Shown here: in pieces, positions 25,860 through 64,000 of the stretch
How positions within the stretch are numbered: the first letter of the stretch is position 1
How the letters are laid out: each line of letters opens with the position of its first letter
Origin: an uncultured Candidatus Binatia bacterium
GTDB taxonomy: Bacteria; Desulfobacterota; Binatia; Bin18
Direction of reading: 5' to 3'
Length of the DNA stretch: 64,000 bases
Assembly: GCA_965214605.1 (NCBI GenBank)
Contig: OZ243961.1
Coordinates: 3,008,001-3,072,000, forward strand
Translations under genes and position numbers: made by a program
Notes under the pieces: model-generated
Databases searched by the model: none
Told to the model about the DNA's origin: nothing
What the model saw: only the letters and a program-made list of their open reading frames with translations

Positions 25860-25996
25860 GGTACTAACCGTCAACTCCTTTGGAAATCTCTGCCCTGCCG
25901 CCTCACCCGCCGGTGGCAGAGGTGGCCGGTGAGGGGACATGCACGCTCACTGCCATACCCCTCTCCCCCAAGGGAGGAGAAGGCGACGTGCGGCCA

Positions 25997-27172: not shown

Positions 27173-27182
27173 GGCCGGCTTC

Positions 27183-28913
27183 CTAATACTCACTTTCCCG
27201 GACCCGGGCCAGTTTCAGACTCGGCTTGGGCAGCTTCTGCTCCTCAACCCGGGTCGCCCAGGCCGGCTTGGGAAAGCGGACCGGGACAGGCGTTGGGATA
27301 TCCGGCTGCGAGACGATCATCCGGCCTGAGGTCAAAATGACTGCCCGCTGACGGAGTGTGGCGGGCAGGAAGCCGTACTCGGCGCGTTCGGCCTCGGCCG
27401 CGTCTAAGCGTCCGACAATCCGAAACGCCGGGTTGGCCACAATCCGGCGCTCCACCTCAGACGCCGTTTGCTGCGCGCCGATCAGGATCGTGCCGCTCGA
27501 CCGGCCCCGCTCGGCAATTTCCAGCAGTCGCTCGCGAATCGGCGACCAGCCGTCGCGCGGGGCATAGCGGTTGAGCTCATCGACCACAATGAAACACAGC
27601 GGTTCGGCCGAGCCGGTGTCCTCTTTTTCCTGCTGAATCTGCTGCAGAACCGAGCCGACCACAAAACCCTTGCCAATTTCAGACAGCCCGGTCAGGCTGA
27701 CCACCGTCACCTGCTTTTTGCGCCAGTTGATGCTGTGGGCGTTCGGGTCGGCGTCGGCCGGATCGCGAATGATATGGGCGACCTTGTCTTCGGCACTGTA
27801 CATCCGTCGTTGAAAAGCCCCGATTGTGCCCTGGGCGTGATTGGTGCTCGCAGCGAGAGCTTCCATGGCTCGCAGCAGGGTCGGAAAGTCCCGGATCTCG
27901 TGCTCCTCCGGGACCGCTCCGGCGTCTTGCTCAGCGTTTGCCCCTTGCCCTCTCCCCTTTTTTTCGGCTTTGTCGATCGGCAGAAATACGCTTGGTCCCG
28001 GCCCGTCGTGTTTGTCCGCAGTCTCGGCCGCCTCACTCAGGCGACGTTCCATCTGGTAGATCAGGCTCGATAACAGTGAGGCTTCGTCTCCGCTGTCGGT
28101 AAACAGATAGCGCAGCAAACGCTCACGGCAAAAGTCGCGGACGGTCCAAAAGTAGGGCGTGACCTCATCGGCCGGGCGGGAGCCGACCCGAGGCATAATC
28201 GAGCTGCGGGCCTGCTCTGTTGGCGGCACATAGAACTGGACCGAATCAAACGGCGCGGCCGGCAGACCCATGGTCTCGTACTCGCTTTCGTCTTCGAGAC
28301 CGATGGCGTTGCTAGGTTTATCAAGGAAGAGCAAATCCTCGCCCTTGACGTTAAAGATAATCGCGTGGGTGTTCTTGGCGTCGTTCAGCTGACCGCAGTG
28401 CAGTAAACTGTGGAGCAGAAAGGTTGCGTAGGTTGTTTTGGTTGCAATACCCGACACGCCGCTGATGTTCATGTGGGCGCCTTTGCGGCCGTTCAGAAAA
28501 TCGAGATTGCCGTACACCACCTCTTGTCCGGACAAAGACAGCCCGATTGGAAACTTGTACTCCATTTTGTCCATAAAGAGGGCTTGAGCGTACTCTTCTC
28601 CACGGACCACCCGGACCGTATTGCCCGGCAGCGGCGGATAGTAATACTCGGGCTCCAAGCGGGTGACTTTGACATGAGCGGCAATTGACAGCTCGACCGG
28701 CAGACCCTGCTCAGCCTCAACCACGTCCGAGTCAAACATCGAGCCCTGATGGCGCGAACGGATCATATCGACCATGCCAAACAGCTTGAGGGCCCCCTGC
28801 GGCGATTGGGTTTCGACCACCACCGCCTCGTCAACCTGCACGGCTTCGCCCTCCTCCAACAAGACCCAGAATTCCAGCGGGGTGGCGTCCTGCGTCCCAA
28901 TCACTTTGCCCAT
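27183..28913 (-). CDS. herA: HerA-family ATPase/helicase
   Basis: N-terminal HAS-barrel-like region, HMNISGVSGIATKT, FNVKGED, VVDELNRYAP, RGRS.G..LIGAQQ. Confidence 0.9.
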   Translation of the reverse strand: MGKVIGTQDATPLEFWVLLEEGEAVQVDEAVVVETQSPQGALKLFGMVDMIRSRHQGSMFDSDVVEAEQGLPVELSIAAHVKVTRLEPEYYYPPLPGNTVRVVRGEEYAQALFMDKMEYKFPIGLSLSGQEVVYGNLDFLNGRKGAHMNISGVSGIATKTTYATFLLHSLLHCGQLNDAKNTHAIIFNVKGEDLLFLDKPSNAIGLEDESEYETMGLPAAPFDSVQFYVPPTEQARSSIMPRVGSRPADEVTPYFWTVRDFCRERLLRYLFTDSGDEASLLSSLIYQMERRLSEAAETADKHDGPGPSVFLPIDKAEKKGRGQGANAEQDAGAVPEEHEIRDFPTLLRAMEALAASTNHAQGTIGAFQRRMYSAEDKVAHIIRDPADADPNAHSINWRKKQVTVVSLTGLSEIGKGFVVGSVLQQIQQEKEDTGSAEPLCFIVVDELNRYAPRDGWSPIRERLLEIAERGRSSGTILIGAQQTASEVERRIVANPAFRIVGRLDAAEAERAEYGFLPATLRQRAVILTSGRMIVSQPDIPTPVPVRFPKPAWATRVEEQKLPKPSLKLARVRESEY

Positions 28914-28929
28914 GGTTTATCCTTCACTC

Positions 28930-29907
28930 TCAGCCCTGCTGGTTGCGCAGCAGGGCTTTTTCAATGCCGCGTCGGATAAGCTGCGGCTCGCCGAGCCGGC
29001 GTCGCAGCTGACGCTCTAAACCGCCGACCGGCAGCAGGTTTTGCGGTGCACGGGGATCTTTGGGCGCCCGCGAGGCTAGGCGAAAGACTTTAATGCTCGC
29101 CTGGTCGAGTAGCCCGATTGCCTTCCGGGGGCCGAGCGAAGCTTTGACTTCGAGCCGTACGAGGCCGGCAAACGTATGCTCAATCAGGCGCGGCTGGGTC
29201 AGGCGCAGATAGCACGAGAACACATCGTAGCTCTCCCGCTTGCTCCCGCCCTGAATCCGAAAGAGGGGGGTGCGCTCGCCCGGCTGGAGCTGTTCTAGGA
29301 TCTGGGTGCGCTGGTTTGACAGATACATGCGATGGATCGACTTGATCACCCCGACGACCGATGAGCTCCCGCCGATATAGGTCAGATTGCCGTCGGCCAA
29401 AATCAGTTTGTCTGGTCCCGACAGCTGCTCGGCAATGGCCGATTCGGCCTGGCGCATTTCGGTCATCAGCGCCTCACTCAGTTTGTCCTGCGTCGTCGCC
29501 TTTGAGCTGAGGCTGGCGTAGCCAAGGGGAGGGCCACTGCCGGCCGGAACAAAAAAGGGGTCCGGCCCGGATTGGCCGCCGCCGGTGATAAACAGGCGTT
29601 TGACGTGGATGGGCCCTATGGTGACCTGGTGATCAACCATCACGGCTCCGCTGGCCAGCGAACAGAATAGCCCCAGAAAACGGTTCTCGCCCTGGCTCAC
29701 AACCGCTCGGGCGTCGGTGCGCATGACCCCGTCCACGACCGCGGTCATGGCCGGTAGACTAGGCGGCTGGGGACGCTGCGCTTTCCACGGGACGTCTTCG
29801 ACCGGATCCTCTAGGGCTTGGACCGTAGTTTCTGCGCTATTGGCCTCGCGCGGAACCGAAATCTGGCCCGCATAATCGCCGCCCCACGGGTCTAAGGCGA
29901 TACGCAT
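28930..29907 (-). CDS. nurA: NurA-family nuclease
   Basis: DPW, VDGV.R, ADGNL, GVIKS, GERTP.F, KDPRAPQNL.P...LE. Confidence 0.88.
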   Translation of the reverse strand: MRIALDPWGGDYAGQISVPREANSAETTVQALEDPVEDVPWKAQRPQPPSLPAMTAVVDGVMRTDARAVVSQGENRFLGLFCSLASGAVMVDHQVTIGPIHVKRLFITGGGQSGPDPFFVPAGSGPPLGYASLSSKATTQDKLSEALMTEMRQAESAIAEQLSGPDKLILADGNLTYIGGSSSVVGVIKSIHRMYLSNQRTQILEQLQPGERTPLFRIQGGSKRESYDVFSCYLRLTQPRLIEHTFAGLVRLEVKASLGPRKAIGLLDQASIKVFRLASRAPKDPRAPQNLLPVGGLERQLRRRLGEPQLIRRGIEKALLRNQQG

Positions 29908-39591: not shown

Positions 39592-40808
39592 ATGTTCGCC
39601 GCAAGGTATATTGAGCTGGAGCTTCCCCGATGTATATCTCTCGAGACGCAGAATCCAGAATTCAGCACTTCGCCAGCGACTACCCGGTGGTCGTGCTCAC
39701 CGGGCCGCGTCAGTCGGGAAAATCCACACTGGTGCGACACGCGTTTCCTGAACACCGCTAAGTTTCACTTGAGGATCTTGATCAACGGGATTTCGCTGAA
39801 AGTGATCCCCGCGGTTTTCTGAGCCAGTTTCCCGAGGGTGCCATCTTGGACGAGGCACAACGGTGTCCTGCCCTGTTTTCCTATCTGCAGACACGCGTTG
39901 ATGAATTGATCCGTCCCGGAGAATTCATACTGACTGGCTCTCAACAGTTCGACCTGTTATCGGGCATCACACAGAGCCTCGCGGGCAGGGCCGCATTGCT
40001 TACCCTTCTTCCCATGACGTATGGCGAATTACGGTGCGCAGAAAAAATCGGAGAAAAACTCGACAAGGTACTTTTTGACGGGGCGTTTCCCCCGATTTTT
40101 GACCGCGGACTTGAACCGCATCCTTAGTATGGCAATTATGTACGTACCTACCTGGAACGCGATGTTCGGCATTTAATCAATGTGCAGGATCTGGGCGCAT
40201 TTCAACGCTTCCTGAAATTATGCGCGGGACGTACCGGGCAACTTCTCAATCTTTCCTCGCTGGCCAATGACTGTGGCATTACACACAACACGATCAAAGC
40301 CTGGATCTCCGTGCTGGAAGCTAGTTATATCGTGCATCTGTTGCCGCCCCATCATCAGAATTTCAACAAACGGCTGGTCAAGACACCCAAACTCTATTTT
40401 CTGGATACGGGGCTCGCGACCTGGTTGCTCGGCATTCAGGACATGGATCAACTGGCCACCCATGTTCAGCGTGGCGCATTATTCGAAAGCTGGGTCATCA
40501 GCGAATTGCTCAAGGCCCGTTATAACGCCGGTGAGGCCTCGAACCTGTACTTCTGGCGTGATCGCTCAGGACACGAGGTCGATCTGCTGATTGATCGTGG
40601 AACATGCCGGTCACCACTGGAAATAAAATCCGGCCAGACAATCAACCGGGATTATTTCAAGGGACTGGAATTCTGGCAAAAACTCGCAGGAAAATCCGCC
40701 GGGAAAGCATGGCTTGTATATGGCGGTGACATCCGACAGACCCGTTCCGATGCCACTGTCGTGCCGTGGCATGAAATCAATCCCGAGCAGATTGTAATGT
40801 CCGCCTGA
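39592..40808 (+). pseudogene. AAA_14/DUF4143 ATPase, disrupted
   Basis: LTGPRQSGKS, ILDEAQ, TGSQQF, SLAGR, TYLERDVR, KTPKLYF.DTG, EVD..EIK; frameshifts and TAG at 40125. Confidence 0.88.
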
Positions 40809-43053: not shown

Positions 43054-44211
43054 ATGACCCGCGAGACCGGCCATTACCGCATCACGCGCACCCTTGGGGA
43101 GGAATTCCATGCCTTCGTGCCGCGTCCGCTGCCGCCTGCCAATCCGCCGCTAGCGATGGACGGCCAGACGGTGGAGCTCCATGCTGAGGCCATGACCGCG
43201 TTGGCCCGCCTCGCTGTTGCGGGCTCAATGGTGCCGAGCACGGACTGGTTCCTCTACGGGTTTGTCCGCAAGGAAGCGGTTGTCTCCTCGCAGATCGAAG
43301 GAACGCAGGCTACGCTGCGCGACGTCGCCACCTTTGAGGCCACCGAGCGGAGCGACCGTCCGGACGACGTGCGCGAGGTCTGCAACTACGTGGACGCCTT
43401 GGCGCACGCCCGGGACCGGCTTGCGGACCCCAGGGGACTGCCGCTCTGCATCCGGTTGCTGTGCGAGGTGCACCGCATCCTGATGTCGGGCGCGCGCGGC
43501 AAGAACAAACTGCCTGGGGAAGTCCGCCGGTCACAGAATTGGATTGGCGGCAGCCGGCCCGGCAATGCCCACTTCGTGCCGCCCCCACCCGAAGAGGTTC
43601 CGGACGTGCTCGCTGCGCTGGAGCGTTGGCTGCACGAGGACAACGCCCTCCCGCCCCTGATCCGAGCTGGCCTCGCCCACGTGCAGTTCGAGACAATCCA
43701 TCCGTTCCTGGACGGCAACGGCCGCATCGGGCGACTCCTGATTGCGCTTCTAGTGGAGCACTGGGATCTGCTTGATCAACCCCTGCTCTACCTCAGCCTG
43801 GCTTTCAGACGGAAGCAGTCGGAGTATTACGCGCGTCTCGCAGCAGTACGCTGCCACGGAGATTGGGAAGGCTGGAACCGGTTCTTCCTATCTTGCGTGC
43901 GCGAGGCTGCCGCCGACGGCGTTCGCGTCGCCCAAGCGCTCCATGTCCTGGTCTCGTACGACCGTGATCGCATCCTCGCCCATGGCCGATCGACCGTCGC
44001 TGCCGTCCGGCTCTTCGAGTGTCTCCCGTCCCATCCGGTCGTCACCGTTCCCAGGGCTTCGGAGCTACTCAATCTGACGGCGCCTCCGGCACGCAAAGCA
44101 GTAGCGTTGCTGGAGAGCCTCGGGGTGCTGTGCGAGATCTCGGGCAGGCGGCGCGACCGCGTCTACGCCTATCACGACTACCTGCGGATCCTAACCGACG
44201 AGGAGACGTGA
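43054..44211 (+). CDS. Fic-family protein
   Basis: EAVVSSQIEGT and the canonical HPFLDGNGRIGR motif; intact. Confidence 0.95.
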   Translation: MTRETGHYRITRTLGEEFHAFVPRPLPPANPPLAMDGQTVELHAEAMTALARLAVAGSMVPSTDWFLYGFVRKEAVVSSQIEGTQATLRDVATFEATERSDRPDDVREVCNYVDALAHARDRLADPRGLPLCIRLLCEVHRILMSGARGKNKLPGEVRRSQNWIGGSRPGNAHFVPPPPEEVPDVLAALERWLHEDNALPPLIRAGLAHVQFETIHPFLDGNGRIGRLLIALLVEHWDLLDQPLLYLSLAFRRKQSEYYARLAAVRCHGDWEGWNRFFLSCVREAAADGVRVAQALHVLVSYDRDRILAHGRSTVAAVRLFECLPSHPVVTVPRASELLNLTAPPARKAVALLESLGVLCEISGRRRDRVYAYHDYLRILTDEET

Positions 44212-49606: not shown

Positions 49607-49729
49607 CCGTCAGGGGTGATAGCTAGGCTGCCCTACGGCACAGGGTCGAAATCGGTACCGCTGCTTCCTTCCGGACCTGACGGGGTTCCCGACCTCCCTT
49701 GCGCAGGACCTAGCTATCACCTCTGACGG
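49607..49729 (-). ncRNA. ffs: SRP RNA (4.5S)
   Basis: GTCAGGTCCGGAAGGAAGCAGCGGT core with a long closing stem GGTGATAGCTAGG/CCTAGCTATCACC; upstream of dnaX. Confidence 0.95.
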
Positions 49730-51340
49730 AGAGGGAGTCTGTTGAACAGGCGCCGTAAGTCGTTGATTGAAGGCCGCCTCCTCGCTGTTCCCGAACATCC
49801 CTGACCGTATAACTGTATGGAGCCAGGCAATGCAAGTGGACTTTTCCATTCTTTGCATTTCAGCGGCGTCCCGACAAGGGGGGCGCGACCAAAGACATCG
49901 TCCGAGGCCGTGAAACCGGTCTTGGACATCCTTGTGATGTAACGGCCGGGCAAGACCGGCGTTTCAACAGTGCCTCAACACTGGGCCGAGGGAAAGGGGG
50001 CCATGAACACCGGCGATCTCGGCATCTCCAGGCGGCCCCACTCTGCGGTCGCCTTCCCGCATCCCAAAGACTCCCTTTCGATTATGAAGAGAGTAGAGAT
50101 GCTGCTCCAGGGGGCGAAAGAAGAGGAGAGAGCATGAAGAACCTGGACTAAAGATGCCTTTCCGCGCCGTGCAGACCAATGGGGTGGCGAACGGGCTATA
50201 ACGTTTGCCGTAACGCTCTCTCGCCCTGTGGTACGTACTGTGGAGTATCCGCATAGACGACGGATTATGACACCGCTCTTGCGTTTACTAGGAAGCTGAC
50301 TGCCGACCTGAATTTCTACACCAATGGCGCCAGTACGCTGACCCCTGGTGCCCTCAAGTGACACAGCGGTTTCGGCTGCAGCCCCTCGGCTCGGAAATAA
50401 CCCCAGCTCAGTATTTCATCGGTGCCTACGACGGCCGGAGCCGTCCCTCTCTCCCCTCTGTCCATCAACAACAACGGCTTTATCCCCCTCGGGTTGTTCG
50501 GCTCCGTAGCAGCGGACATGCTCCCCAAGGTAGGAGTGTCCAAAGTCAGCGCGACCGCGGCAGCGTAAGAGCGGAGGCGTTGACAGGGTAAAACGAAAAT
50601 AGCGGCACCCCTGTCCCTGCCGCAACGGGTCCCTTTGGAAGCAACAGCAATGCGGGTGGGCGAGAACGGGAGCAGCACGATCACCGCCCTGTTCGCCGTC
50701 GACCCCAATGAGCAGGACGCCGTCACCGCCCTCCCGCGCCCTGCTCACGGCTAGCGCCGCCCGGAACGTACCGGGCGACCCTAGCGACACGTCCGGGGAC
50801 ATCGCTCTAGCACGAGGCCATGCTGCCGCTGCGGCGGAGAGCATGGAAGAGCGTCTGCGAAGTCTCTTGCTGAAGGCTTTCGCAGCGTGGTGAGGCTCTC
50901 TGACATTGCAGCGGGTTTGCGCCACAAACGTTGGAAACTGCTCAAGCTGACCCCAGTTTGGGGTCGGAAGGGCCCGGCTTTGACGGGTGGGGATGAGGGA
51001 CTGAGATCAGCGTTGCGGTATTGGCAACATATCGAAATGGTGTTAAAGCTGGCGCAACACAAGGGAGAGTAGTTTTTGAGCAAAAACAAGGACAAGAAGA
51101 ACAGGAGGCGGCTTTCGCTAATCTTGGACAAGGCCGACTTGCCGCGTCTCTGGACCTGTCCGCGGCATGGGTGATCCGGCGAACGGTGTCTGAGTTCGTC
51201 GTTCACGACCACCTATGGAATTGAGCTGACTCTCTCGCTCCGGCCGTTCGGCTCCGATACCACACAGGAGCGGAATAAAGAAGCCGGAGCGCAGGTGTGG
51301 TTGATAGACGCAGTTGAAATTCAGGGGAGTAGGGCGAACC

Positions 51341-53176
51341 GTGGCACATACAAACGGCCTCATCTCATTTCTGCGCCACTACGGCCCCATCCCGACTAGC
51401 GACAACATGTATGACGAACTCATACAGACAGAGATTGAGCGACATCAGATCAATCCGGCAATCCATATCCCGCCCGTGCTGCTGAAAGACGTCCGCGCCA
51501 ATTTCGAATCCGCAGCACCCAAAAACGTCATCCTTACCGGCACGGCTGGCGACGGCAAAACGTACTACTGCCGCCGCATCTGGGAATATTGCGGGGGCGA
51601 TCCGGAAGCCTGGAAGGCAGGCGAAAAGATTGTCTCGCTCACCCTTGTCAAGTCCGGCAAAAGGCTGACCATCGTCAAAGACTTGAGTGAATTGACGCAG
51701 GCGGAGAAAAGCGATCTTCTCTCAGATCTCGCCAAAGCTGTGGAGGGCAAGAGTTCGGCCGACGTGTTCCTCGTTGCCGCGAACGACGGTCAGCTCCTTG
51801 CCACATGGCGGGACTGGTCGGATTCGCAGGACGAGAATGCGCACCGCGTGTTTAAGATTGTCGAAGACTTACTTGTGGGAGGCCGCACGACGGATGATGC
51901 CCTTGATTTATATCTGTACAACCTGAGCCGTCTTGATGCTTCGACCCACTTTGAGGAATTGATCGAACAAATCGTGGAACATCCCCAATGGTCTCAGTGC
52001 CAGGGCTGTGAACTGCTCAAGGCGAATGGCGCGCCCACCTGTCCCATCCGGATCAATCGCGAGCGCTTGCGCCTTCACACCGACGGATCGGTGTTTCGGC
52101 AGCGTCTCAGCGCCTTGATGAAACTGGCCCGGGCCAACAGGATGCATCTGCCAATCCGCGACCTCTTCCTGCTCTGCGTCAACATCCTGCTCGGCGACCG
52201 CCACGGACGCCAAATTCTTCTGACCTGCCGGACTGCAAAGAATCGCGTAGATAACAAGGAGTACCGTCTGACCAATCCCTACGCAAACGTATTCGGGATG
52301 AACCTGCCCGAGCGACAACGCCAGCAATATCAGGTATTCACGACGCTGGAGACGTTTGGAATCGGCCGCGAGACGGATAACCAATTCGACAACCTCCTGA
52401 TCTACGGGGCCCACGACCATTCCGATCTCTACCGGCGGCATGTGACCATGGATACCTATTACGGCGCAACGGCCTACGAACTGTATCTGCGCGATTATCT
52501 TGAAGGCGAACGGGAGAACATTGCTGAGTTCATGCGTTCCCTTTCCCGGCAGCGCCAGCGGCTGTTCTTTTCGCTGTCTTCAGACCACACACTTGATCCT
52601 TGGCGACTCACCGTCTACAAGGCATCCGGGCGGTTTCTGGAATTTCTCTCCGGTCTGGCCAGCGGAGCCGACATCTCGCGCACGACCGAGTTGCTCGTGC
52701 GCGGTCTCAACCGAACATTTTGCGGGATGATGATCGATGACGGCACGACACTCTATTTGGCCTCCTCAGGCGGTGACGGGCAGGGACGGATTGCTACGCT
52801 CCTCAACTACGATCTCCCAACCACACGGAATCGCCGCTATCCTTACCTCCGTTTTTCACTGACGCCGGATCGGGCCGCGCCGTGGTTGGAAATCGTTGAT
52901 CCGCACGGCGCAAACGACGATATCGTAGACCGTCTCACGCTCCAACTGACACATTTTGAGTACCTGGTGCGCGTGGCCAGCGGCAGCTTGCCGGGGAGTT
53001 TCTCTCGCCAATGCAACGAGGATTTTTTGGATTTCAAGCTGAGGCTGATCAAGAGACTCGATAAGTTGATCGGTGAAGAACCGTCTTCGTCGGACGAGAT
53101 CAATCTGCAGGCTTTGAGCGTCGATGAGAATGGAAGGCCGCATTCCGACCCTATCCGGATAAGGCTGAGCCCATGA
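51341..53176 (+). CDS. P-loop protein, DndF/DptF-like
   Basis: GTG start after GGGGAG; ILTGTAGDGKT, VKDLSE, LVAANDGQL, CQGC...CPI.IN. Confidence 0.7.
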   Translation: MAHTNGLISFLRHYGPIPTSDNMYDELIQTEIERHQINPAIHIPPVLLKDVRANFESAAPKNVILTGTAGDGKTYYCRRIWEYCGGDPEAWKAGEKIVSLTLVKSGKRLTIVKDLSELTQAEKSDLLSDLAKAVEGKSSADVFLVAANDGQLLATWRDWSDSQDENAHRVFKIVEDLLVGGRTTDDALDLYLYNLSRLDASTHFEELIEQIVEHPQWSQCQGCELLKANGAPTCPIRINRERLRLHTDGSVFRQRLSALMKLARANRMHLPIRDLFLLCVNILLGDRHGRQILLTCRTAKNRVDNKEYRLTNPYANVFGMNLPERQRQQYQVFTTLETFGIGRETDNQFDNLLIYGAHDHSDLYRRHVTMDTYYGATAYELYLRDYLEGERENIAEFMRSLSRQRQRLFFSLSSDHTLDPWRLTVYKASGRFLEFLSGLASGADISRTTELLVRGLNRTFCGMMIDDGTTLYLASSGGDGQGRIATLLNYDLPTTRNRRYPYLRFSLTPDRAAPWLEIVDPHGANDDIVDRLTLQLTHFEYLVRVASGSLPGSFSRQCNEDFLDFKLRLIKRLDKLIGEEPSSSDEINLQALSVDENGRPHSDPIRIRLSP

Positions 53177-54699
53177 ATCAACGTCTCAAAGCGCCGGCCA
53201 AATACGATGTAAACATCTGGGTGGACGAGGCGATCTGGGGACATCGTCTCTACAACGACCAGACTCCCTGGCTGGTCTTTCTGGAGTTTCTGGCCATCTT
53301 CCGATCGCGAAACCAAGAAGGTACGGCACTCAATGAAAACGGCCGGAATGGTGCGCACGAGTCCTTTACATACAACATTCCCCGATTAATCCCGCTGCGT
53401 CAGCTCATTTTTAACAATCCGCACCTTCGGCATATCGAGGCGACGCACGATGCCGACTCCGAACGCTGGCACCAGTGGTTGAACAAGTTCGGGACGGACG
53501 GCGATTTTAGCTCTCTGAAGGATCGTCTGGGCTCCTTTTCCCACCTCGCGCGGGTGATTGAGTTCTTTCAGACCACGGCCGTGGAGCCCCACCGCCGGCG
53601 TCGCTGGAGTTCAAAGTTTCTTTTTCCTTACGGCCCGGACTGTCTCTATGCCGATCTCCCAGCGAATATCAACGGGAGTCCTGACCGGCGGTTCTTTGCG
53701 CGCGGCGGCGAGTTGCTGTACCTCATGCTGAGCCGCAGTGGTGCGAGGGCGGAGGTCGCCCAGACGATCTCCGACAGACTGCTGCGCACGAATGAACAAT
53801 GGAACCGTGTCGTTTCCGCTCTGCTGCCGAAAGGTCTTGGCGCAGACTCAAATCTTGTGTCTAGCACGATCGGCTATCTCCCTTTTGCCAAGCGAGCTGA
53901 GTACGAGTCACTGGCGGATACATGGCGTCGCCTGCTGCGGCTTGACGTGCCCGCAGAGACGCTGCTCGATCCACTCGTGCGGCTCTCGGCTTTGCACATG
54001 CTGCTCTACATGCTACGCCGCGCGCTCGAAGAAATCGGCGAACCAAACGAGCCGAAATTCGTTCTTGAAGTTTCCTCCCCCAGAAAAACTACGCTCTTTG
54101 ATCTGTCAGCCGAAAACCTCCGAGCCAACAGAATGCTATCCACTCGTGCGGTACGTGCCCACGTTGAGTCGGCAAGAGACACCAAAGCGTGGCAAAAAGC
54201 TCTCGCCGCGCGTGCGCCCGGCGACCTCGTACGGAAATACTTGACCAAGCAGTTCCAATGGAACCCGGATGACAGCCCCCCGTCCGGCGATCCGGAGAGG
54301 ATCTTTCAGACCCTCCGCTCCTACGCGGAGAAGCGCCATCAACAACACGTGGCGAAAGTCCACCTCGAATGGGCGCGGCAGCTCGGGCTCGCCGTATCGC
54401 GCCGGGGTACGGGAACGTGGTATGCGCCGGATGACTCGCTGCTGAAAGCGCTTGTCATGTGCGTGGTCGACGAAGGTCGGGAGGAGTATCATCGGTTTCT
54501 CGCCAAACTCTATGACCATTTCCGGCTCGTGATTGGCGCAAGTGAGGCAGAACGCGCCTTTGGCAGCTTGCCGACCGATCAAAACGCCTTTATGCAGAAC
54601 TCGCAACGCCTCGAGCAGCGTCTGCGGACGCTCGGTCTGCTGCACCGCCTCTCCGATGATTGCGCCTATGTTGAAAATCCGTTTAGGAGCCGGGTATGA
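53173..54699 (+). CDS. DndG/DptG-like protein
   Basis: ATGA-coupled to both neighbours; C-terminal LGLLHRLSDDCAYV resembles the DptG end motif. Confidence 0.6.
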   Translation: MNQRLKAPAKYDVNIWVDEAIWGHRLYNDQTPWLVFLEFLAIFRSRNQEGTALNENGRNGAHESFTYNIPRLIPLRQLIFNNPHLRHIEATHDADSERWHQWLNKFGTDGDFSSLKDRLGSFSHLARVIEFFQTTAVEPHRRRRWSSKFLFPYGPDCLYADLPANINGSPDRRFFARGGELLYLMLSRSGARAEVAQTISDRLLRTNEQWNRVVSALLPKGLGADSNLVSSTIGYLPFAKRAEYESLADTWRRLLRLDVPAETLLDPLVRLSALHMLLYMLRRALEEIGEPNEPKFVLEVSSPRKTTLFDLSAENLRANRMLSTRAVRAHVESARDTKAWQKALAARAPGDLVRKYLTKQFQWNPDDSPPSGDPERIFQTLRSYAEKRHQQHVAKVHLEWARQLGLAVSRRGTGTWYAPDDSLLKALVMCVVDEGREEYHRFLAKLYDHFRLVIGASEAERAFGSLPTDQNAFMQNSQRLEQRLRTLGLLHRLSDDCAYVENPFRSRV

Positions 54700-57600
54700 A
54701 GAGAAGTGAGCTGATTGCCTCGGTGGCGCTCGATTTTATCACGGCGCAAATGCAACAAGAACCGCAAGGATCGTTACGGTTCTGCATGCTCGGCCTTGAG
54801 GCGTCCCTCGTCCGTTCGATAGCAACGGCCGTTCTCAATGATCAGGAGAGCCGCGAACTTGTCTCGGTCAAGATCACAACGGTGTTTGATCCCGACGGCA
54901 CCCTGCCTGAAGACGCTCGGAGCGACCAATCCGTCACGCACTGGCGCCACTGCCGGCTTGCGGACGGCAAACGCGCCGTTCTGTTCGCCGCGTCTCAGGA
55001 GGAATTGCAACGGAACGACAAGAGTGTCGAGAAGGTTATCAAGATTGAAACCGATATGTTACGCACCCGTTACAACGCATGGCTTGATCACGCCGGCCTG
55101 ACCGTAGAGCGTCTCGACGTGGCGGGACGCGAGCAGCTGCAAACCGCCCTGCAGGCGATAGACGCCACGCATGTCGCCCGTACAATTGAGACCTTCGCCG
55201 ATTTTATCCTCGCGGTCGCCGAGAGCATTCTCATCAAAGGGCTCCCGCTCCAGAAAGCCGTCGACAACGCATTGCCCAGCCTGCGTCTACCCCGGTATTC
55301 GGGATATTTCGAGCGCATTCCAGCGAAGAAGCGAACACAAAAGGGGGAATGGAACAAGATATTCCGGCGACTGCGCACCCGAATCCGTCCCTTTCTCATT
55401 CGTGAGACCGAACGCAACGAACCGATCTCCGAAGACCAGCTTCGTGCCAATCTGGACAAGATTGCAGATCAGCTGACGGAGACCGAGCGCCGGACAGTCA
55501 AAGCGTTTCTGGAGGCGGACGTCAAACCGGATGATTGGTGCGACGCACAAAAGGCGCTGGTCGCCCTGGACTGGCGTCGAATCTCAGGCCTGTTTGAAGG
55601 CGTGACGAAAACGAGGCCTTCTCCGCTTGGCGGGGAGACCAAAAAGTTCTTCGACGACGAGTTCGGCGACCAGCTTGATGAGCAGGAGCGTGAACTCCTG
55701 GCCGGAGTGTTTCCCAAGGAACCCTCCGACGATCTCCAGGAGTTTTACGAAGAGCACAGGGAGGAGCTTGCGAAGGACAAAAAACTGTCCGGCAGGTGGG
55801 AGCGCTATATCTATCGCAACCCACAGACCTATCCGGATTTTCTCCTTGGCCTTGTCGCGACGGTCGACAGCCTACGACGGCGAACGCGGGACGATGGGCC
55901 GATCGAAAACAAGCTGGTGGTACGCATTCCGAACGCCCGCAAAAAGAGCTTTTGGCGCGGCAAGACCCCGCGTATTGCTCGCTACTTTGCGTTCCGCTAT
56001 CGGGGGCTTGGAGCGCTTCTCGGACCGGACGTTGAACTCGATTTCGGGAAGCTTGCGGATTTCTACTTTCCCGAGCCCGACGACGGTCTCGCAAAAGTCA
56101 CGTCCAGATCCAAAGAGGCGCGCTCAATCAAATTCGAGGTGCTCCTTGACCCGGACGGAGCCAAAGCCACGCTCATCTTCTACTGGGAGATGCCGGTCGA
56201 CGCGCTCGCAACCGCCCTGCCCGACGATCTCTTGAGCGTGGCAAACCTTGACCAAGCGCAGGCATTATTGCCCACCGCAGACATTGCGCGGCAGTCCGTC
56301 GGTGCTAAAGGCAGTATTCAGCGGATTGTGCTAAACGACGTCAACACGATCCGCGACGTCACGAACACCAACAACGGCAAGCTGGTTGCGCCCAATGAGG
56401 ACAGCGGGGACCGGAGCGGAGCATTCCGCTCGGCGCTCGAGGAGTTGCTAAGTGTCCTCAATCCCCCGGACCATCGGCGTATCGGGAGCGCCTTTGAGGA
56501 TTTTGTTGGTGCGTACACCAAAGCCCTCCGCGACTGGGTTTCCGGGGACGGTGCGGGCCTTGCGTCTGAGGCCCTGACGGCGCAGGCTGAAAAATATGGA
56601 GCGGTGTTGGAATGTCTCCTGCGGGGAGCCAACAAGGACCTCGCGCGTGAACGGCTCTGGCCCGAACTCATGCGCCTTGGCATCGCAAATGTGGGCGCTG
56701 GCGTCCCGGCGGCCATCATCACCCCCTGGCATCCCCTTCGCTTAGCCGGAATCAAGGTCAAGACGGACCAGGTGGTCCGGCTAGTCCAGGACGTACTCCG
56801 TGGGAATGAGGACGATATCTTTCGCAGCGACTTGCTGTTCGCACAGATTGAGCGCGATCTCGTATCGCCCTACTACCCGGAAGTGTGTATCGGATTCGAT
56901 AAGGACAAGCCTATGCTGTTGGCCGCAGCGGACTCCAGCTACGATTACACGCTGGCGGAGCCGCCGTTGCGGCAAGCGCGTCCAGATGGGGATGACGCAC
57001 TCGATGTTGAGCCCGGCGTGGCCGCAAAAAGATTTAGTGAGGTCGGCGAACAGTATCTCAAACTTTTGCCACATGAGCGCAGCAACTTTTCCGTTGTGCT
57101 ATACAACGCCGAATCCAAGGCGCTGCCGAGCGCCCTCGCATCCGAGCTCTCGAGTATGGTTGAGCAGGAAAACGAACTCCAGTGCGATTTGCTGCTGACG
57201 CATTCAGACCCGAAACGACTTCGACGCATCTACGAACAACAGAACGTCGCTGTGAGTAACGAGTCCGGGTCGTTGATGGCCAGCGAATCGGCACCAAACT
57301 TCCTGTCACGTCTTCGCGTCGGGTTTTGCGAGGCAGCGGATCTCTCCGCCGATGAGAACGGCCGGGCTACCGACCTGGTCGCTCTGCAGGATGTTGTCGC
57401 GCGCAACGCCAAGCTGGTTTGGAAGCCGGCACCGGGACACCGCCATCCCGACCTCGCGGACCACGTTCCCGCACGATGGTCGCGGCGACGACCGATAGGG
57501 CCGGCGGACACGGCGACCTCCGTCTACCTGGCCTGCCCGGCCCAGCCGCGGGTCGGCCAGCTCTATCTCAGCGCCGTGCACGGGTTCCTTGATGGTGATA

Positions 57601-60080
57601 ATGCGAGCGCCGGAGACGTGATACCAGCCCGCGAGGTGAAGTTTCGCGGCACCGACAGCGCGGACGTATTCAGCCGGACGCACCGGATGGGGGAGTGGGT
57701 TGTCAATTTCGACGAACTCGTTGACCGGCGGCTGCTCGCAAACAACGGCGTGCGGGTGGTCCGTCATATGCCTGACCGGCGGATTGAGCGCAACATTGTC
57801 GTCTCAACGACATCAAAGCCACGCTTGCTGCGGGTTCTCCTGCGTGAACGGCTGGAACGACTCGACCCGGCGATCGTGAAGGGCGATGACGTGATCGACG
57901 GATTGATCGACCAAGCCAATACCTTATCCGGGCAGGGGGTCATGCGCGCGGCGCGCTACGGACGCTACGCGAATGAACTTCTTGGCATCGTGCTTTCGAT
58001 GGAAAAAATCCGTCAAGAGCTCGGGGGAGTGGATTTTCCTCTTGGATGGTACTTTCTGGACGACTTCGCCTCGTGGTTTGGACAACGCGAAGAACAGATC
58101 GCTGACATCATGGCGCTCGCGCCGCGGGTCGAGGACGGAGAGCCCGTCCTCAGGATTGCCATCTCGGAAGCAAAATTCGTTGCCTCAAAGGGGTACCGGG
58201 CGCAGGCCAAGAAGTCTGCAAAACAGCTTCACGAAACCGTGGAGCGGATCAGGCGTGCCCTCGACCCGCTCCACAAACGAATCGACCGAGAGATCTGGCT
58301 TCATCGCCTCGGCGATTTCATGCTTGAAGGAGTGGAGCCTTTCGACTCGTCAAAGCTGAATGGCTGGGATCTGTACGGATGGTCCGATGAGGTACGGCAG
58401 AACAAGGTGCGTATTGAACTAAGCGGGTTCTCTCACGTGTTTGTACACGATGATGATGAAGCCGTGGATGCGGATGACTCGAGGCCACTCAAGGGGATGC
58501 CACATTGTTCTCAGCAGGTCTTTGACAAACAGGGTGTGACCGATGCGTGCCGTTCGTTCGCGGCCCGGCGCGCACGGCGTGGACAATCCTCAGACGACGC
58601 GGCGGGATGGGGCGATCCCCTCGTATCCTCAAGGAGCGGCGGCTCAGCAACGCCGACCACAAGGACGCGGCTGGTGGAAGGTGGCGCTCCGTCGGAACCC
58701 GCACCCGTCGTGTCCACCCATAATCCGAATCCAGCAGAGTCGGTCGCCGCCGACCGCCGTGAGATTGGAGAACAGCCTACCTCCTCGACGCTCCTATCGG
58801 CCTCGACGAACGCGCCCGCCGCAACGGAGCTCGCGAACAGTCATCAGAACGTGGCCGCGGACTATAGCGAGAAGTGGCCGTCGGGCGAACTCGCAGCCTG
58901 GGTCAATGCCGGGCGGATTTCCGAAGAAGAGGATGAGGAAGCCAAGGCGTGGCTTGATACAACCGTCAAAGCGCTGCAGCGTGCATTGCGCGGATACGAG
59001 ATGACGGCCGAGTTGGTCGGTGTCCGATTGACGCCGAACGCGGCGCTCGTGCGCTTTCGTGGGTCAGACGCTCTCACCGTGCCGAAAGTTGAGAAGCGGC
59101 GCCAGGAATTGTTGACTTCCCACGCCGTTGAGGTCATCAACGTCCTGGCCGCGCCAATGGAGGTAGTCATCATGGTCGCGCGGCCTAGTCGGACGATATT
59201 GCGCCTGCGCGATCTCTGGCGACAACGCGCTCTGCCGGTAAGCGCACCGCGGACGAATACGAGCCTGCTGCTGGGCGCTCGCGAGTCCAACGGCGAGCTG
59301 CTGTACCTCAACGTCGGGGGCAGTTTTGGCGGACAACAGCCGCACGGGCCGCATACACTCATCGCTGGCGAGACAGGGAGCGGCAAAGGCGTTCTTGTTC
59401 AGTGCCTGCTGCTTGATATCTGTGCGACCAACGCACCGTCCTCCGCACGCATTGAGATGATTGATCCAAAAGCTGGCATTGATTTTCCGTGGTTACGGCG
59501 GATGCCACATCTCAATGGGGACCTCATAACGGACCGTAAGGCGGCGATCGGTGTACTGGAAGCCCTTGTCGAGGAAATGGAACGTCGGAACAGGTTGCTC
59601 GCGGAAGTCGGGGTCACCAATCTGTCCCGCTACAATCAAAGAGTCGCACCAGCGGACCGTTTAGCGCGGATCTGGCTGTTCCACGACGAACTGGCGGACT
59701 GGATGATGAACGACGATTATCGCGACGCCGTCGAATTGAATGTAAACCGCCTGGGTGTCAAAGCGCGTGCATCCGGCATCAATCTCGTCGTTGTCACACA
59801 GCGGCCCGACAGGGATGCTCTGCCCATGCAACTCCGGGCAAATTTGGGCAATAGACTCCTCCTTAAAGTGGCCGACAAGAGGAACTCCATCCTGGTCCTT
59901 GATGAGCCGGGCGCCGAGCGGCTTCTTGGGCGCGGACACCTTGCGGCAAAGTTATCCGGCGAAGGCAAGGTCATTCTGGCCCAGGTCCCGTTTGCCAACG
60001 AAGAGGAGATCATGGAACTTGCAAAGCTTATTGAGAAGGCATGGACGGGTCAGGAGATACCCGCAGGCCAAGGCAGCTAG
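54696..60080 (+). CDS. 1794-aa protein with C-terminal FtsK/HerA ATPase, DndH/DptH-like
   Basis: PH.LIAGETGSGKG, IDPK, FHDE.AD, ARASGI.L...TQRP, GAE.LLG.G; large N-terminal region containing PWHPLR. Confidence 0.8.
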   Translation: MKRSELIASVALDFITAQMQQEPQGSLRFCMLGLEASLVRSIATAVLNDQESRELVSVKITTVFDPDGTLPEDARSDQSVTHWRHCRLADGKRAVLFAASQEELQRNDKSVEKVIKIETDMLRTRYNAWLDHAGLTVERLDVAGREQLQTALQAIDATHVARTIETFADFILAVAESILIKGLPLQKAVDNALPSLRLPRYSGYFERIPAKKRTQKGEWNKIFRRLRTRIRPFLIRETERNEPISEDQLRANLDKIADQLTETERRTVKAFLEADVKPDDWCDAQKALVALDWRRISGLFEGVTKTRPSPLGGETKKFFDDEFGDQLDEQERELLAGVFPKEPSDDLQEFYEEHREELAKDKKLSGRWERYIYRNPQTYPDFLLGLVATVDSLRRRTRDDGPIENKLVVRIPNARKKSFWRGKTPRIARYFAFRYRGLGALLGPDVELDFGKLADFYFPEPDDGLAKVTSRSKEARSIKFEVLLDPDGAKATLIFYWEMPVDALATALPDDLLSVANLDQAQALLPTADIARQSVGAKGSIQRIVLNDVNTIRDVTNTNNGKLVAPNEDSGDRSGAFRSALEELLSVLNPPDHRRIGSAFEDFVGAYTKALRDWVSGDGAGLASEALTAQAEKYGAVLECLLRGANKDLARERLWPELMRLGIANVGAGVPAAIITPWHPLRLAGIKVKTDQVVRLVQDVLRGNEDDIFRSDLLFAQIERDLVSPYYPEVCIGFDKDKPMLLAAADSSYDYTLAEPPLRQARPDGDDALDVEPGVAAKRFSEVGEQYLKLLPHERSNFSVVLYNAESKALPSALASELSSMVEQENELQCDLLLTHSDPKRLRRIYEQQNVAVSNESGSLMASESAPNFLSRLRVGFCEAADLSADENGRATDLVALQDVVARNAKLVWKPAPGHRHPDLADHVPARWSRRRPIGPADTATSVYLACPAQPRVGQLYLSAVHGFLDGDNASAGDVIPAREVKFRGTDSADVFSRTHRMGEWVVNFDELVDRRLLANNGVRVVRHMPDRRIERNIVVSTTSKPRLLRVLLRERLERLDPAIVKGDDVIDGLIDQANTLSGQGVMRAARYGRYANELLGIVLSMEKIRQELGGVDFPLGWYFLDDFASWFGQREEQIADIMALAPRVEDGEPVLRIAISEAKFVASKGYRAQAKKSAKQLHETVERIRRALDPLHKRIDREIWLHRLGDFMLEGVEPFDSSKLNGWDLYGWSDEVRQNKVRIELSGFSHVFVHDDDEAVDADDSRPLKGMPHCSQQVFDKQGVTDACRSFAARRARRGQSSDDAAGWGDPLVSSRSGGSATPTTRTRLVEGGAPSEPAPVVSTHNPNPAESVAADRREIGEQPTSSTLLSASTNAPAATELANSHQNVAADYSEKWPSGELAAWVNAGRISEEEDEEAKAWLDTTVKALQRALRGYEMTAELVGVRLTPNAALVRFRGSDALTVPKVEKRRQELLTSHAVEVINVLAAPMEVVIMVARPSRTILRLRDLWRQRALPVSAPRTNTSLLLGARESNGELLYLNVGGSFGGQQPHGPHTLIAGETGSGKGVLVQCLLLDICATNAPSSARIEMIDPKAGIDFPWLRRMPHLNGDLITDRKAAIGVLEALVEEMERRNRLLAEVGVTNLSRYNQRVAPADRLARIWLFHDELADWMMNDDYRDAVELNVNRLGVKARASGINLVVVTQRPDRDALPMQLRANLGNRLLLKVADKRNSILVLDEPGAERLLGRGHLAAKLSGEGKVILAQVPFANEEEIMELAKLIEKAWTGQEIPAGQGS

Positions 60081-60174
60081 GAGCTGTCGGCAGGCAAAAA
60101 AGGGTTTTGGCTGTCTGAAAATCTCGTCGATATGGCGAGGCTCATCGGCAAGCCGTAGCGGATTCAACACCGCC

Positions 60175-60775
60175 TTAGTGGCTTGCTAGCGGCAGATGTG
60201 GTCCGTGATAATCAATGACGATCCTTTTCTTCTCGCTAACCCAACGGAAATGAACGCGAAGGGTTTTCGTTTTGTCATCCTCGACCCCAATCTTGAGGGG
60301 CGACTCCATGAATATTGCCTTGCCTTCGTAGTCAAAAGTCCTGACTTGTCGTAGAGCCTTATCTCTAGCCACAGTTTCCGCTTCCTTCGCCGCGCACTCA
60401 TTTTTACCGAGGCACTTCTTGGTCCTGCTATTTCCATCTTTCATAAGAACGAGCTGGTACTCCGTCACCAGACGAATCCGCCTGTCCAATAGGCGACGGC
60501 TGTTTTTGAAAGGAGTTCATGTTTGTAGCGCTCTTCCGCGCTCTCTCAAGGGCCAAGCATTTGTTGCCATGTATACTCTGAACGACATTGAGGCACTCCA
60601 ACGGGGTAGGCGGAGCGCTTCGGCATGCGAGATCTCTGAGTTTGTCTATGTCGGCAGCAATGGCGCGTCCCGCGCCCGTACTAACAAGGCGGTCTTTTAG
60701 GGCCTGGATCTGATATTCCTTTTTCTTCAGTTCGGCGCTTGCATCTTCGCCCAAGGCTCTTGCTTCTGGGCTCAA
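60175..60775 (-). pseudogene. C-terminal part of a conserved island protein with a RelE-like tail, frameshifted
   Basis: RTFDYEG..IFME.PLKIG......LRVHF.W....IVI.Y.G.HL, split across two ORFs. Confidence 0.55.
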
Positions 60776-60860
60776 TCGTATGACTGCCGAAGAGGGCGCC
60801 GACGCGCTTACTACCGAGGTGGCTGGTGTGTAGGTGCACGCCAGCGCTTACGCAGGGGGG

Positions 60861-60970
60861 GGCTGCTCGCCGTTCATGTGGCTATTAGGTTTGTGATTGC
60901 CGGACCGGAGACTGCGAGGACTGCGGCCCGCAGGGCTGCTCGCCGTTCATGTGGCTATTAGGTTTGTGAT
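60861..60970. repeat. Two identical 37-bp direct repeats separated by 36 bp
   Basis: ggctgctcgccgttcatgtggctattaggtttgtgat at 60861..60897 and 60934..60970. Confidence 0.9.
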
Positions 60971-61090
60971 GGTCTACCGTGAGTCTCGAACGCAACCCGA
61001 GCGCCAGCCTGGGCGATGTCGCAACAGGCTTCAACGTCCGTCGTCCGTTCGAGTTGGCATCTGTGTTCAGTGGCGAGGGTTTTCACAGCT

Positions 61091-61702
61091 TCAGGCCTCC
61101 ATCTTCTGAATCAAGGTTTCGACCAGGCGCTTGGCCTGAAGCGAGGCCTCGGTCACCTTGACGGGGTCGATTTGGGCAAGGATATCGAAGGAATGTCTAC
61201 CCTTGCCATATTCGCCCTTTTTTTTGCAGCGCCGAGTCGCGGCCTTGAGTCCGTTGAGCACCTCGGTTTTGGTGACGTTTTCGACGTCGCTACGAGCCGG
61301 CAACGCACCACGATAGAATCCGTCGCCGAAAAACAACCCTAAAGTGTCTTTGTCGGCCAGAAACCACGCCTCCATGCACCGTACCATAAGGTGCGCGCTG
61401 TCGTCCGTAGTTGCCGCTGGACGCTCCCAGCGGTCCCGGTCTTTGAGGTGTGCTCAAGATCCGTTTCCCACCGCTACCGGCGCCTCGCTGTCTACCAGCA
61501 GGAGGATAAAGTCGTCTGCACCGGCCTTGTTGAGTGCGGTACAGAAATCGCCAAATGCCTGATGCCGCCCTCCGCTAGCAACAATCTTCGGCATTTGACC
61601 GTCGAGTCCAGCCTTGCGGAAGAACTCGCTGAAACCTGCGCGGCAACGTGTCCTCACGGCACTGACGTCTCCGCCACCCTCCACGTAAACTGTGACGTTC
61701 AC
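61091..61702 (-). pseudogene. DUF4276 (TOPRIM-like) protein, frameshifted
   Basis: VYVEGGG, SGGR..AF..F, LLVDSE, MV.CMEAWFLAD, Y.KG.HS. Confidence 0.85.
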
Positions 61703-62863
61703 CAGCGGTTACCCCCCAGTTCGCCCTTGCGCCACAACTCTCCGAGGCTGTAACGCTGCAACCAGTCGGAAAGATCCGCCTTATCGAGACGCCGCATATT
61801 GGTCTGGCCACGGTGCTTCTCGCACACCACCACACTTTCCGGTGTGTCGGTCAGCGCATCGACCAACACCTCGGACTGGGTCGTCACCACGAGTTGGCAT
61901 CGCTCCGACGCCTCGCGTAGAAGGTCGCTGAGTGTCGGCAAGATGTCAGGATGTAGGCCGAGCTCAGGTTCTTCGATGCAGACCAGTGGTGGCGGCTTCG
62001 GGTGACAAAGGATCGCCAACAGGCAGAGATAACGCAGCGTCCCGTCCGACAGTCGTCTTGCCGCCACGGTGATATTATCTTCCTGGAGGAAAACCTGGAC
62101 GGTTCCAGCTTCGATAATGATGTCGAAGTCGGACACCCCTTCATACAGCTTCCGTAGGGCCTCGAGAATTTGGGCCTTTGCCTTCGGGTCGCGTTTCAGA
62201 CTGCTCAGGACCAGTCCCAGGTTCTTGCCATCCTCGACGAGGAAATCATTTGGCAGATCCGCCCTTTGAGGTAGGCGCGGCAAGGTGTATCGCCCGAAGC
62301 TCCACTCGCGGTACAACCGCATTTGACCGAAGACTTCGCCAATGTAAGTCAGCTCGGGATAGTGGTCGGGATCCCTGCGCTGTGAGAGGATGGACTGCTC
62401 CGGGTTGATCTCTTCACGTAAAAGCTTGCGCTGCCCGATCTCTTTGACGTTGAGATAGGGAACCCCATGCTGATACGCAAAATAGAAGTAGGGTTGATTG
62501 TGACCTGCATCCGGCCGTTCGTTTTCTATCCGTTCGTCGGTTACGTCAAATCGCTGGCCCTTCTCCGCGAAACCTAGACGGTATCGCAAGGCCTGCGGAC
62601 CTTTCGGGTTTTCCACGATCACGTCAATGCGCGCGGAAGACGCTTTGGGGTCACCGCGCCAAATCCACTCGTGAATCCCTCCCCCCTCGCGGATCGGCGC
62701 CGTGAGATTCCTTGGCGCCGCCTGGAGCAAATCGATTGCTTCAATGAGGTTGGACTTACCCGAGCCGTTTGGGCCGATCAGGATATTTAGAGGTCCCATG
62801 TCCAGCGTGTCGGTGTCGGCCGAAAGAGAGAAAATTCTGCAGTCTGATACTTCGAATGAGCAT
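61699..62863 (-). CDS. AAA_21/ABC-type ATPase, 5' frameshift near 62820
   Basis: MLIRSIRLQNFLSFG (ATG 62863) is out of frame with LIGPNGSGKSN; LSDGTLRYL, IEEPELGLHPD. Confidence 0.88.
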
Positions 62864-62929
62864 GTTCTTGCCTCCTCTACTCACCCCCATGGGACCTTGT
62901 TTGAGCTGCTCAAGCTTGGTCTTTGCCAC

Positions 62930-63490
62930 CTAGGCATCGATCTCGTCCGGGCGAGGGGCACGTAATCCTGCTGTCAGAAATGGAGGACCAGTGAACCTTG
63001 TAGGATCTTGCCGGTTCGGCACCGACTGTGGCGAAGGCACGCACCCAATCTCACCGGCCCGATTCCCGCACCCATTGATCTGCAAACAGTCAAACGTGCC
63101 AGATGACGAGATCATCGGGCTGAAGACCATCTACCTCTCGCAGACTCGGTCGCGGGTTGCTCCCCCAAGCTTCGGCTGCCGGCCGCGTGGGATGAGCACG
63201 TGTCGCTGGATGCGCTCACGCAGCGGGGCCTTGGCAGTATCGTTGGCTTGGAGGGGCCGTTCATCTATCACAGGGTCCAGACCTTGAGTCGCTTCTTCAG
63301 GCATACTTTGGAGTGCCCTGATAAGGTCACCGAGGGTTTTCGCGTCGTGGGACGGCCAAGGAATCAAGAGGTCCAGGGCTTTTTGATTGAAATCATAGAA
63401 CTGCTCTCGCGTGACGACCTGGCCAGTCTCAGACGCGTCGCTGCGCCGGCGAGGTCTCTAGCTGTCAGAGTCGGTCCGACGAAACTCTAG
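62930..63490 (-). pseudogene. Fragment of a large hypothetical protein
   Basis: Protein-like pieces W..HD..TLGDL, KA.LRERI and PDDLIIWH.WLF.D.W broken by stops and frameshifts. Confidence 0.4.
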
Positions 63491-64000
63491 CTTGATCTGC
63501 GCGCCCCAAAGACTTCGGCCTAGGTATCGTTCTAAAACTGCTCATAATTAATGTCCTTGTTTTCCGGAAAATGGTTTGTCAACAGTGTCATCAAACATCG
63601 TGGTGCAATCTTGTAGGAGATGAATAAGACGCTTTTCTTGCTCTTCTTCCGGGAGTTGTAAAAGTGATGTGGCCACTTCATCTACAGTTTCCAAAATGGA
63701 ATCAATACCGTGGAAAAACATTGAATTTCTATGAAGTTTTCGTTATTATTGCGTTCTGTTGCTTTATTAATAACACTGTTAAGATAAGGAATGAAACCAT
63801 CGTGGAGTACTTTCTTTCGTAATTGTGAATATTCAGAAAAATTAGACCCGGTTAATAGACAAGGTGAAACAGTAGCCAGAATACATGAAACAATAGTCAT
63901 AATAGATGAAAATCTTTCTCCCCTAATAAACCTCCGTGCATCTCAAACCATTGCTCTACCGAGGCCGCTGTCTGCGGCATCTATAACTTGAAGATTGCCT

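Follow-up and report, generated by a model that had tools for sequence, protein, structure and literature searches.

A full-length SspFGH restriction trio encoded 0.99 Mb from the sspABCD phosphorothioation genes in a Candidatus Binatia genome

DndFGH (DptFGH) is the restriction partner of DndABCDE, which carries out double-strand DNA phosphorothioation (PT). SspE is a single nickase that is stimulated by PT and inactive without it. A single-strand counterpart, IscS-SspBCD-SspFGH, is described for Vibrio anguillarum FF-93 by Wang et al. (2021, mBio, PMC8092258). According to that paper, IscS-SspBCD writes the phosphorothioate at 5'-CpsCA-3' on one strand, and SspFGH inflicts damage on unmarked DNA and stops phage DNA replication. 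All three genes, sspF, sspG and sspH, are required. SspFGH alone is toxic to PT-less Escherichia coli, in which TUNEL-positive cells appear, and this toxicity is rescued by SspBCD, including that of another species, but not by DndBCDE. Named features of the system are the Walker A motif of SspF and the FtsK/SpoIIIE-like C-terminus of SspH. DndFGH follows the same logic, attacking unmodified DNA and being toxic without PT, and SspE and SspFGH can share one writer with additive protection (both PMC8092258). Nickase and translocase activities are reported for the complex of DndF, DndG and DndH (PMC11662687). The terms SspF, SspG, SspH and SspBCD do not occur in the text of Rakesh, Aravind and Krishnan (2024; PMC10853773), which has nothing direct on this trio.

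Here we examine an FGH-type trio in a 64,000-nt stretch of an uncultured Candidatus Binatia genome, called the window (contig C1, C1:3008001-3072000). Positions refer to the window unless they carry a contig or locus prefix. An initial annotation, made from the letters of the window, had presented the trio as an orphan and as a possible new system. We find a published system, SspABCD-SspFGH, whose only unusual feature is the split of about 1 Mb between writer and restriction module.

The sspFGH genes and their products

The genes and their recognisable motifs are as follows.

51341..53176, + strand: sspF, 611 aa from a GTG start; an alternative TTG at 51314 gives 620 aa
53173..54699, + strand: sspG, 508 aa
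54696..60080, + strand: sspH, 1794 aa
51539-51562, + strand: Walker A motif GTAGDGKT of SspF, residues 67-74, P-loop NTPase
58104..58175, + strand: candidate PD-(D/E)xK-type nuclease motif of SspH, D1137...E1158-A-K1160, assigned by motif
59337..60023, + strand: FtsK/SpoIIIE-type ATPase (DNA translocase) domain of SspH, PF01580, E 7e-27, residues 1548-1704
59367-59390, + strand: Walker A motif GETGSGKG within the FtsK/SpoIIIE domain of SspH, residues 1558-1565

The three intact, ATGA-overlapping reading frames reported earlier at 51341-60080 (611, 508 and 1794 aa) are all open. They lie in the order F-G-H, co-oriented on the + strand, and ATGA is present at both junctions (4-bp overlaps at 53173-53176 for sspF/sspG and 54696-54699 for sspG/sspH). 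By gene order and overlaps this is the operon layout of SspFGH.

Matches to PADLOC models extend over the whole of each protein: SspF matches PDLC02793 (E 5.3e-221, model positions 1-600 of 600), SspG matches PDLC02799 (E 8.4e-194, positions 3-498 of 498) and SspH matches PDLC02806 (E 0, positions 1-1765 of 1766). By these profiles, the three proteins are full-length members of the named SspF, SspG and SspH families, and the system is the already known SspABCD-SspFGH. The matches bear out the earlier view of an FGH-type, phosphorothioate-linked restriction trio with SspFGH as its known analogue. They overturn the claim that the trio is a divergent, undescribed system, against which the initial annotation had itself set a match to an already named system. 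No Dnd model in PADLOC matched the trio at E <= 0.01, Pfam and NCBIfam returned no family for SspF, SspG or residues 1-1500 of SspH, and a sequence search of the PDB with SspF and SspG found nothing.

Both features named for the Vibrio system are present here. In SspF, the G..GDGK[T/S] motif and cysteine cluster pointed out earlier correspond to the Walker A motif and to C220, C223 and C234. The Walker A motif, a KDLSEL block at residues 113-118 and H214/C220/C223/C234 are invariant in 27 sequences. Among the neighbours of SspF in a protein atlas, the nearest cluster with a name is DptF (score 0.91, rank 25), which we take as a lead only. The C-terminal motif noted in the second gene (LGLL..LSD..AYV) is also confirmed, SspG ending in ...LGLLHRLSDDCAYVENPF. 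With an AlphaFold model of SspG (mean pLDDT 65.7, pTM 0.69) as query, the sole PDB match at E <= 0.001 is the crystal structure of DndG, 7exx (E 8e-4, probability 1.00, 373 columns, 15% identity), with low TM scores of 0.31 and 0.35; weak MukE matches come next. By this model SspG is a remote structural relative of DndG with a shared G-subunit fold, at a distance where sequence similarity is undetectable.

For the large N-terminal region of SspH Pfam has no family; a variable linker at about 1290-1500 joins it to a C-terminal FtsK/SpoIIIE motor of some 250 residues, in agreement with the FtsK/HerA ATPase previously placed at the end of the third gene. The C-terminus (residues 1550-1776) matches the FtsK structures 2iuu and 2iut at E about 1e-34 (2iuu, 4.7e-34). 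Within the N-terminal region, D1122, D1123, E1132, E1133, D1137, E1158, A1159 and K1160 do not vary among 26 sequences of 36-77% identity, and D1137...E1158-x-K1160 resembles a PD-(D/E)xK nuclease core, making it a candidate for the DNA-damaging site. A structural model of residues 700-1290 is confident only for about 1044-1290 (pLDDT mostly 70-95), and a fold search with it against the PDB gave no match at E <= 0.001 (best HamA, 8vx9_A, E 0.06; FokI, E 0.28), so the nuclease assignment stays at the level of the motif. The residues D1137, E1158 and K1160 of SspH and the DndG-like fold of SspG offer simple mutagenesis targets in a system whose biochemistry is thin.

In two Nitrosomonas loci (L007 and L012) the best SspH match ends at residues 1282 and 1314, before the linker and FtsK domain, and the protein may be split or truncated at these loci. 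PADLOC has separate models for the N-terminal ~1255 residues and for the C-terminal motor, which is consistent with such a split.

A second version of the trio is present in the assembly on contig C4, with SspF and SspG matches of 98% identity. We considered a second genomic copy and rejected it, reading C4 as a strain-variant haplotig. All 14,617 bases of C4 are colinear with C1:3058223-3072835 at 98.55% identity, covering the sspFGH end of the surrounding island. Contigs C3, C5, C7 and C9 behave alike, being 96-99% colinear copies of C1 stretches, and this supports the reading of C4. All five are probably haplotigs from strain heterogeneity, not duplications, although such contigs could pass for gene duplications.

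Comparison of the two variants is informative about the condition of the genes. The C4 copies of sspF, sspG and sspH are also open (612, 508 and 1794 aa), giving 8.7 kb of open frame in both variants, and the genes differ by 1.0-1.6%. Synonymous and nonsynonymous codon differences number 13:15 in sspF, 11:8 in sspG and 34:20 in sspH. Given about three times more nonsynonymous sites, this is a synonymous excess, and the codon differences point to purifying selection on sspFGH.

In a scan of the region, promoter and terminator counts equalled the shuffled expectation; chance alone would give 3.1 sigma-70-like promoter sites where three were found, and no such site lies upstream of sspF. A perfect 38-nt direct repeat (60860-60897 and 60933-60970, 73-nt spacing), shared by the C4 variant, follows the end of sspH at a distance of about 0.8 kb; each copy comprises a small hairpin and, after it, a T-rich tail.

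The distant writer and the homologous loci

As stated in the initial annotation, no dnd, ssp or methyltransferase gene was found within C1:3008001-3072000, and PF01555, PF02384, PF00145 and PF02086 gave no methyltransferase match there. The trio is an orphan only at the scale of the window. A complete cluster of sspA (divergent, - strand), sspB, sspC and sspD lies on the same chromosome at C1:2063468-2069922, with PADLOC matches that are all near full length (sspA E 4e-128, sspB 5.4e-107, sspC 0, sspD 3.3e-138). It supplies the Ssp writer, sspBCD plus cysteine desulfurase, in the same genome as the trio, and it includes the only DUF4007/SspB gene in the 4.37-Mb assembly (C1:2064774-2065616). 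From sspD to sspF (C1:3059341) the distance is 989 kb, a departure from the usual layout, in which the trio adjoins sspBCD. A genome-wide search for DndC (TIGR03183) found none.

The writer appears compatible with the trio. SspC and SspD of this genome match the same PADLOC sub-models (PDLC02780 and PDLC02782) as the sspCD products encoded beside the closest homologous trio (locus L003), with bit scores of 1331.8 versus 1364.6 for SspC and 458 versus 456 for SspD. The locus is very probably a functional SspFGH module acting in trans with the sspA/sspBCD writer 0.99 Mb away. By analogy with the published system, the distant sspABCD would protect the cell against this trio. PT dependence, toxicity without PT and the need for all three genes are taken from the literature and would likewise apply here by analogy.

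In the mechanism that we propose, SspABCD would put sulfur on one strand of host DNA (5'-CpsCA-3' in the systems studied). One complex would be built from SspF as NTPase, SspG as a DndG-like subunit that serves as scaffold or contacts DNA, and SspH as nuclease plus FtsK-type translocase, and it would patrol DNA by means of the SspF P-loop NTPase and the SspH FtsK-type motor. Tracking along DNA, the complex would nick it unless PT marks are met, and phage DNA replication would be blocked.

To place this arrangement among its relatives, we surveyed the neighbourhoods of 29 loci that encode SspG relatives (38-79% identity). In 22 of the 29, the stretch retrieved includes sspB, sspC or sspD. The other seven loci are mostly cut by contig ends, and a DUF4007/SspB gene is found elsewhere in five of the seven genomes, which were searched as two sets (four of five and one of two positive). 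An Ssp writer gene thus accompanies the trio in 27/29 trio-bearing genomes or loci. SspB was not found in the other two genomes (G044 and G046), both metagenome-assembled genomes of unstated completeness. Among 40 relatives of the genome studied here, three, related at the family level, have SspG, and in each of these sspB lies within 10 kb on the contig that carries SspG. Such trios are thus nearly always accompanied by an Ssp writer. Since SspFGH is toxic without PT (PMC8092258), an intact trio is to be expected only where a writer exists, and the near-universal writer agrees with this prediction. Two observations count against action in trans: the writer lies apart from the trio, whereas 22 of the 29 homologous loci have the two side by side, and the trio-bearing G044 and G046 show no SspB.

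The survey also bears on the suggestion, made in the initial annotation, that the trio uses another self mark or acts alone. An autonomous FGH-type complex of this kind would recognise, for example, methylation, or no mark, and would be independent of phosphorothioation. It would suit a window without a modification gene, and the C-termini of SspG and SspH weakly resemble MAD7 and mad8 of MADS, the methylation-associated defence system, a similarity indicating that FGH-like parts can pair with methylation elsewhere. The full-length matches, however, are to SspF, SspG and SspH and not to MADS, the genome carries an sspABCD of the matching sub-type, and the sole methylase in the island (HmaB) is a fragment. 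The writer genes that accompany homologous trios in 27 of 29 cases speak against PT independence, as does the toxicity of SspFGH without PT in the published system (PMC8092258). The suggestion is left unsupported for members of the SspF/G/H families in a genome with sspABCD, and we rate it very improbable.

A related alternative accepts the presence of sspABCD but holds that it does not serve the trio, its PT motif or density being, for example, unsuited, and that the trio is tolerated via another self mark or control mechanism. This would make the trio a PT-independent FGH-type system. We consider it highly improbable.

The same writer may have a second client. Right after sspD lies a Pbe-like stretch (C1:2069901-2077252; L033 14901-19302 and L065 1520-4252). 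Its first gene encodes a 716-aa protein whose sole match is a sigma-70 region-4-like HTH. Next come genes for a PbeA-like helicase (E 1.3e-151) and for a PbeC-like ABC ATPase (E 4e-44), and then an ORF of 161 aa. From these matches, the genes after sspD look like a Pbe/CxC-type module attached to the Ssp writer. We lean towards the view that one resident PT writer provides a shared mark for two independently acquired cassettes, the distant SspFGH and the adjoining Pbe-like module, and a shared writer is more likely than PT independence.

In the two congeners with sspBCD, other genes occupy the position right after sspD: one of 815 aa in G006 (L043 3345-5792), and two of 633 and 801 aa in G004 (L044 1070-5373). 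Their products match no PADLOC family or give only a weak REase_II match, and Ssp writers may have in them additional partners that are as yet uncharacterised.

The sole DndB-family (DGQHR) frame of the genome (C1:2088425-2089345; L065 15470-16309) carries one internal TAG, lies 20 kb from sspABCD and adjoins a weak pAgo/SIR2-like match (L065 12931-14217). Probably it is either a remnant or part of another system that uses a DndB-like gene.

The defence island and separate histories

The trio is the leftmost cargo of an island of about 41 kb, which spans 49750-64000 of the window and C1:3072001-3098535 (L063 and L064). The following features mark its border and its other contents.

49618..49715, - strand: ffs, small SRP RNA, Rfam RF00169, 71.4 bits
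61699..62799, - strand: HEC-01A-type AAA_21 ATPase, full length, PADLOC PDLC04177, E 4.4e-173; Pfam AAA_21 positions 1-304 of 304
L063 2008-5625, just beyond the window: PsyrT/PsyrA, intact island member
L063 12751-13485: HEC-02B, truncated, model positions 1-237 of 344
L064 2146-3597: HmaB methylase, truncated, model positions 80-425 of 967

The ffs gene is the last conserved feature before the island, and the left border lies at about 49750. Synteny with the congener G006 ends at C1:3057753, just after ffs, and resumes at about C1:3098535, which places the trio leftmost; in G006 the island is absent between ffs and the next conserved gene. For the congener G004, synteny begins at C1:3098596 among the matches listed. 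The 1.6-kb interval between ffs and sspF contains no recognisable gene, and three of its small ORFs, scanned against Pfam, gave no match. A TatD-like DNase is also among the island genes, and no integrase was seen among the island ORFs scanned. The HEC-01A ATPase is not part of the Ssp system.

The island had been described as otherwise ruined. This holds for HmaB and HEC-02B, which are truncated, and not for HEC-01A, which is full length, or PsyrT/PsyrA, which is intact. The fragments invite another explanation, in which the trio is intact but idle: a recent passenger of a decaying island, silenced or catalytically dead, with PT unneeded. The lack of a sigma-70-like promoter upstream of sspF, in a region where such sites are no more frequent than by chance, would agree with this. 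Against an idle trio stand the catalytic-looking motifs, all intact and invariant, the 8.7 kb kept open with a synonymous excess in two diverged variants, and the compatible writer in the genome. We think an idle trio unlikely.

The trio and the writer have separate evolutionary histories. SspG is found in none of seven congeners and SspB in two of the seven. SspA, SspB, SspC and SspD are 81, 73, 74 and 87% identical to those of the congener G006, and SspB, SspC and SspD are 53, 60 and 84% identical to those of L003. Probably, sspFGH was acquired alone, in the ~41-kb island beside ffs, by a lineage that was already phosphorothioating its DNA. The split layout illustrates, in a natural setting, the modularity that PMC8092258 demonstrates by experiment: a PT-dependent restriction cassette can be gained alone where the host already marks its DNA.

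The locus carries little weight as a discovery, the system being already published. It is instructive for annotation: defence callers that work by neighbourhood would mark this trio as incomplete or orphan despite the partner in the genome. Such tools would miss a distant partner, so apparently orphan restriction modules call for a genome-wide check before they are called new.

Other parts of the window also encode genes of note. A cluster of four genes at 22578-29907 (- strand) encodes proteins that are SbcC/Rad50-like (1120 aa), an SbcD/Mre11-like phosphoesterase (398 aa), weakly matched to a HAS-barrel (HerA-like; 576 aa) and of the NurA-domain type (325 aa), and by these matches resembles an archaeal-style Mre11-Rad50-HerA-NurA set. 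A 208-aa frame at 40182-40808 (+ strand) contains nothing but a DUF4143 domain (model positions 11-160 of 160), probably without the usual N-terminal ATPase part. An intact Fic/DOC protein is encoded at 43054-44211 (+ strand), and local G+C content falls to 0.53-0.57 at 36-42 kb.

Comparison with known systems

Outside the Ssp systems, the nearest described relatives are DndFGH and MADS. Like DndFGH, the trio has a G subunit whose model matches DndG (7exx), and the DptF cluster lies near SspF in the atlas. Unlike DndFGH, it matches no Dnd model at E <= 0.01, and DndC is absent from the genome. Neither the profile match nor the dndBCDE genes that would place it in DndFGH/DptFGH were found, the only related gene being the DndB-family frame with the internal TAG.

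The trio resembles MADS locally, at the C-terminus of SspG, where residues 380-497 are similar to MAD7 (NCBIfam, E 2.6e-10, 40 bits), and in the FtsK domain of SspH, which is similar to mad8 (PADLOC, E 7.2e-23). The matches are partial, however, the 40 bits for MAD7 compare with a cut-off of 410, and the locus does not belong to MADS. No methyltransferase or MAD1-6 gene is nearby, and the neighbouring HEC-01A matches mad3 only weakly (E 2.9e-17). FGH-like parts coupled to methylation do exist as a named system, and this locus is not one.

SspABCD-SspE uses the same Ssp writer; it differs in its effector, and among the genes scanned beside the writer of this genome none matches an SspE model.

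The closest counterpart is the FF-93 system. In a limited literature search, which covered the main text of PMC8092258 in part, we found no account of SspFGH trios apart from their writer. The two systems are alike in the F-G-H order, the SspF Walker A motif, the FtsK-like C-terminus of SspH and the presence of an Ssp writer in the genome, and the trio matches full-length the PADLOC models named after the FF-93 system, a comparison made via the models. They differ in that the FF-93 writer is adjacent, whereas here it lies 0.99 Mb away, with the trio in a separate defence island and the writer accompanied by its own neighbouring Pbe-like module.
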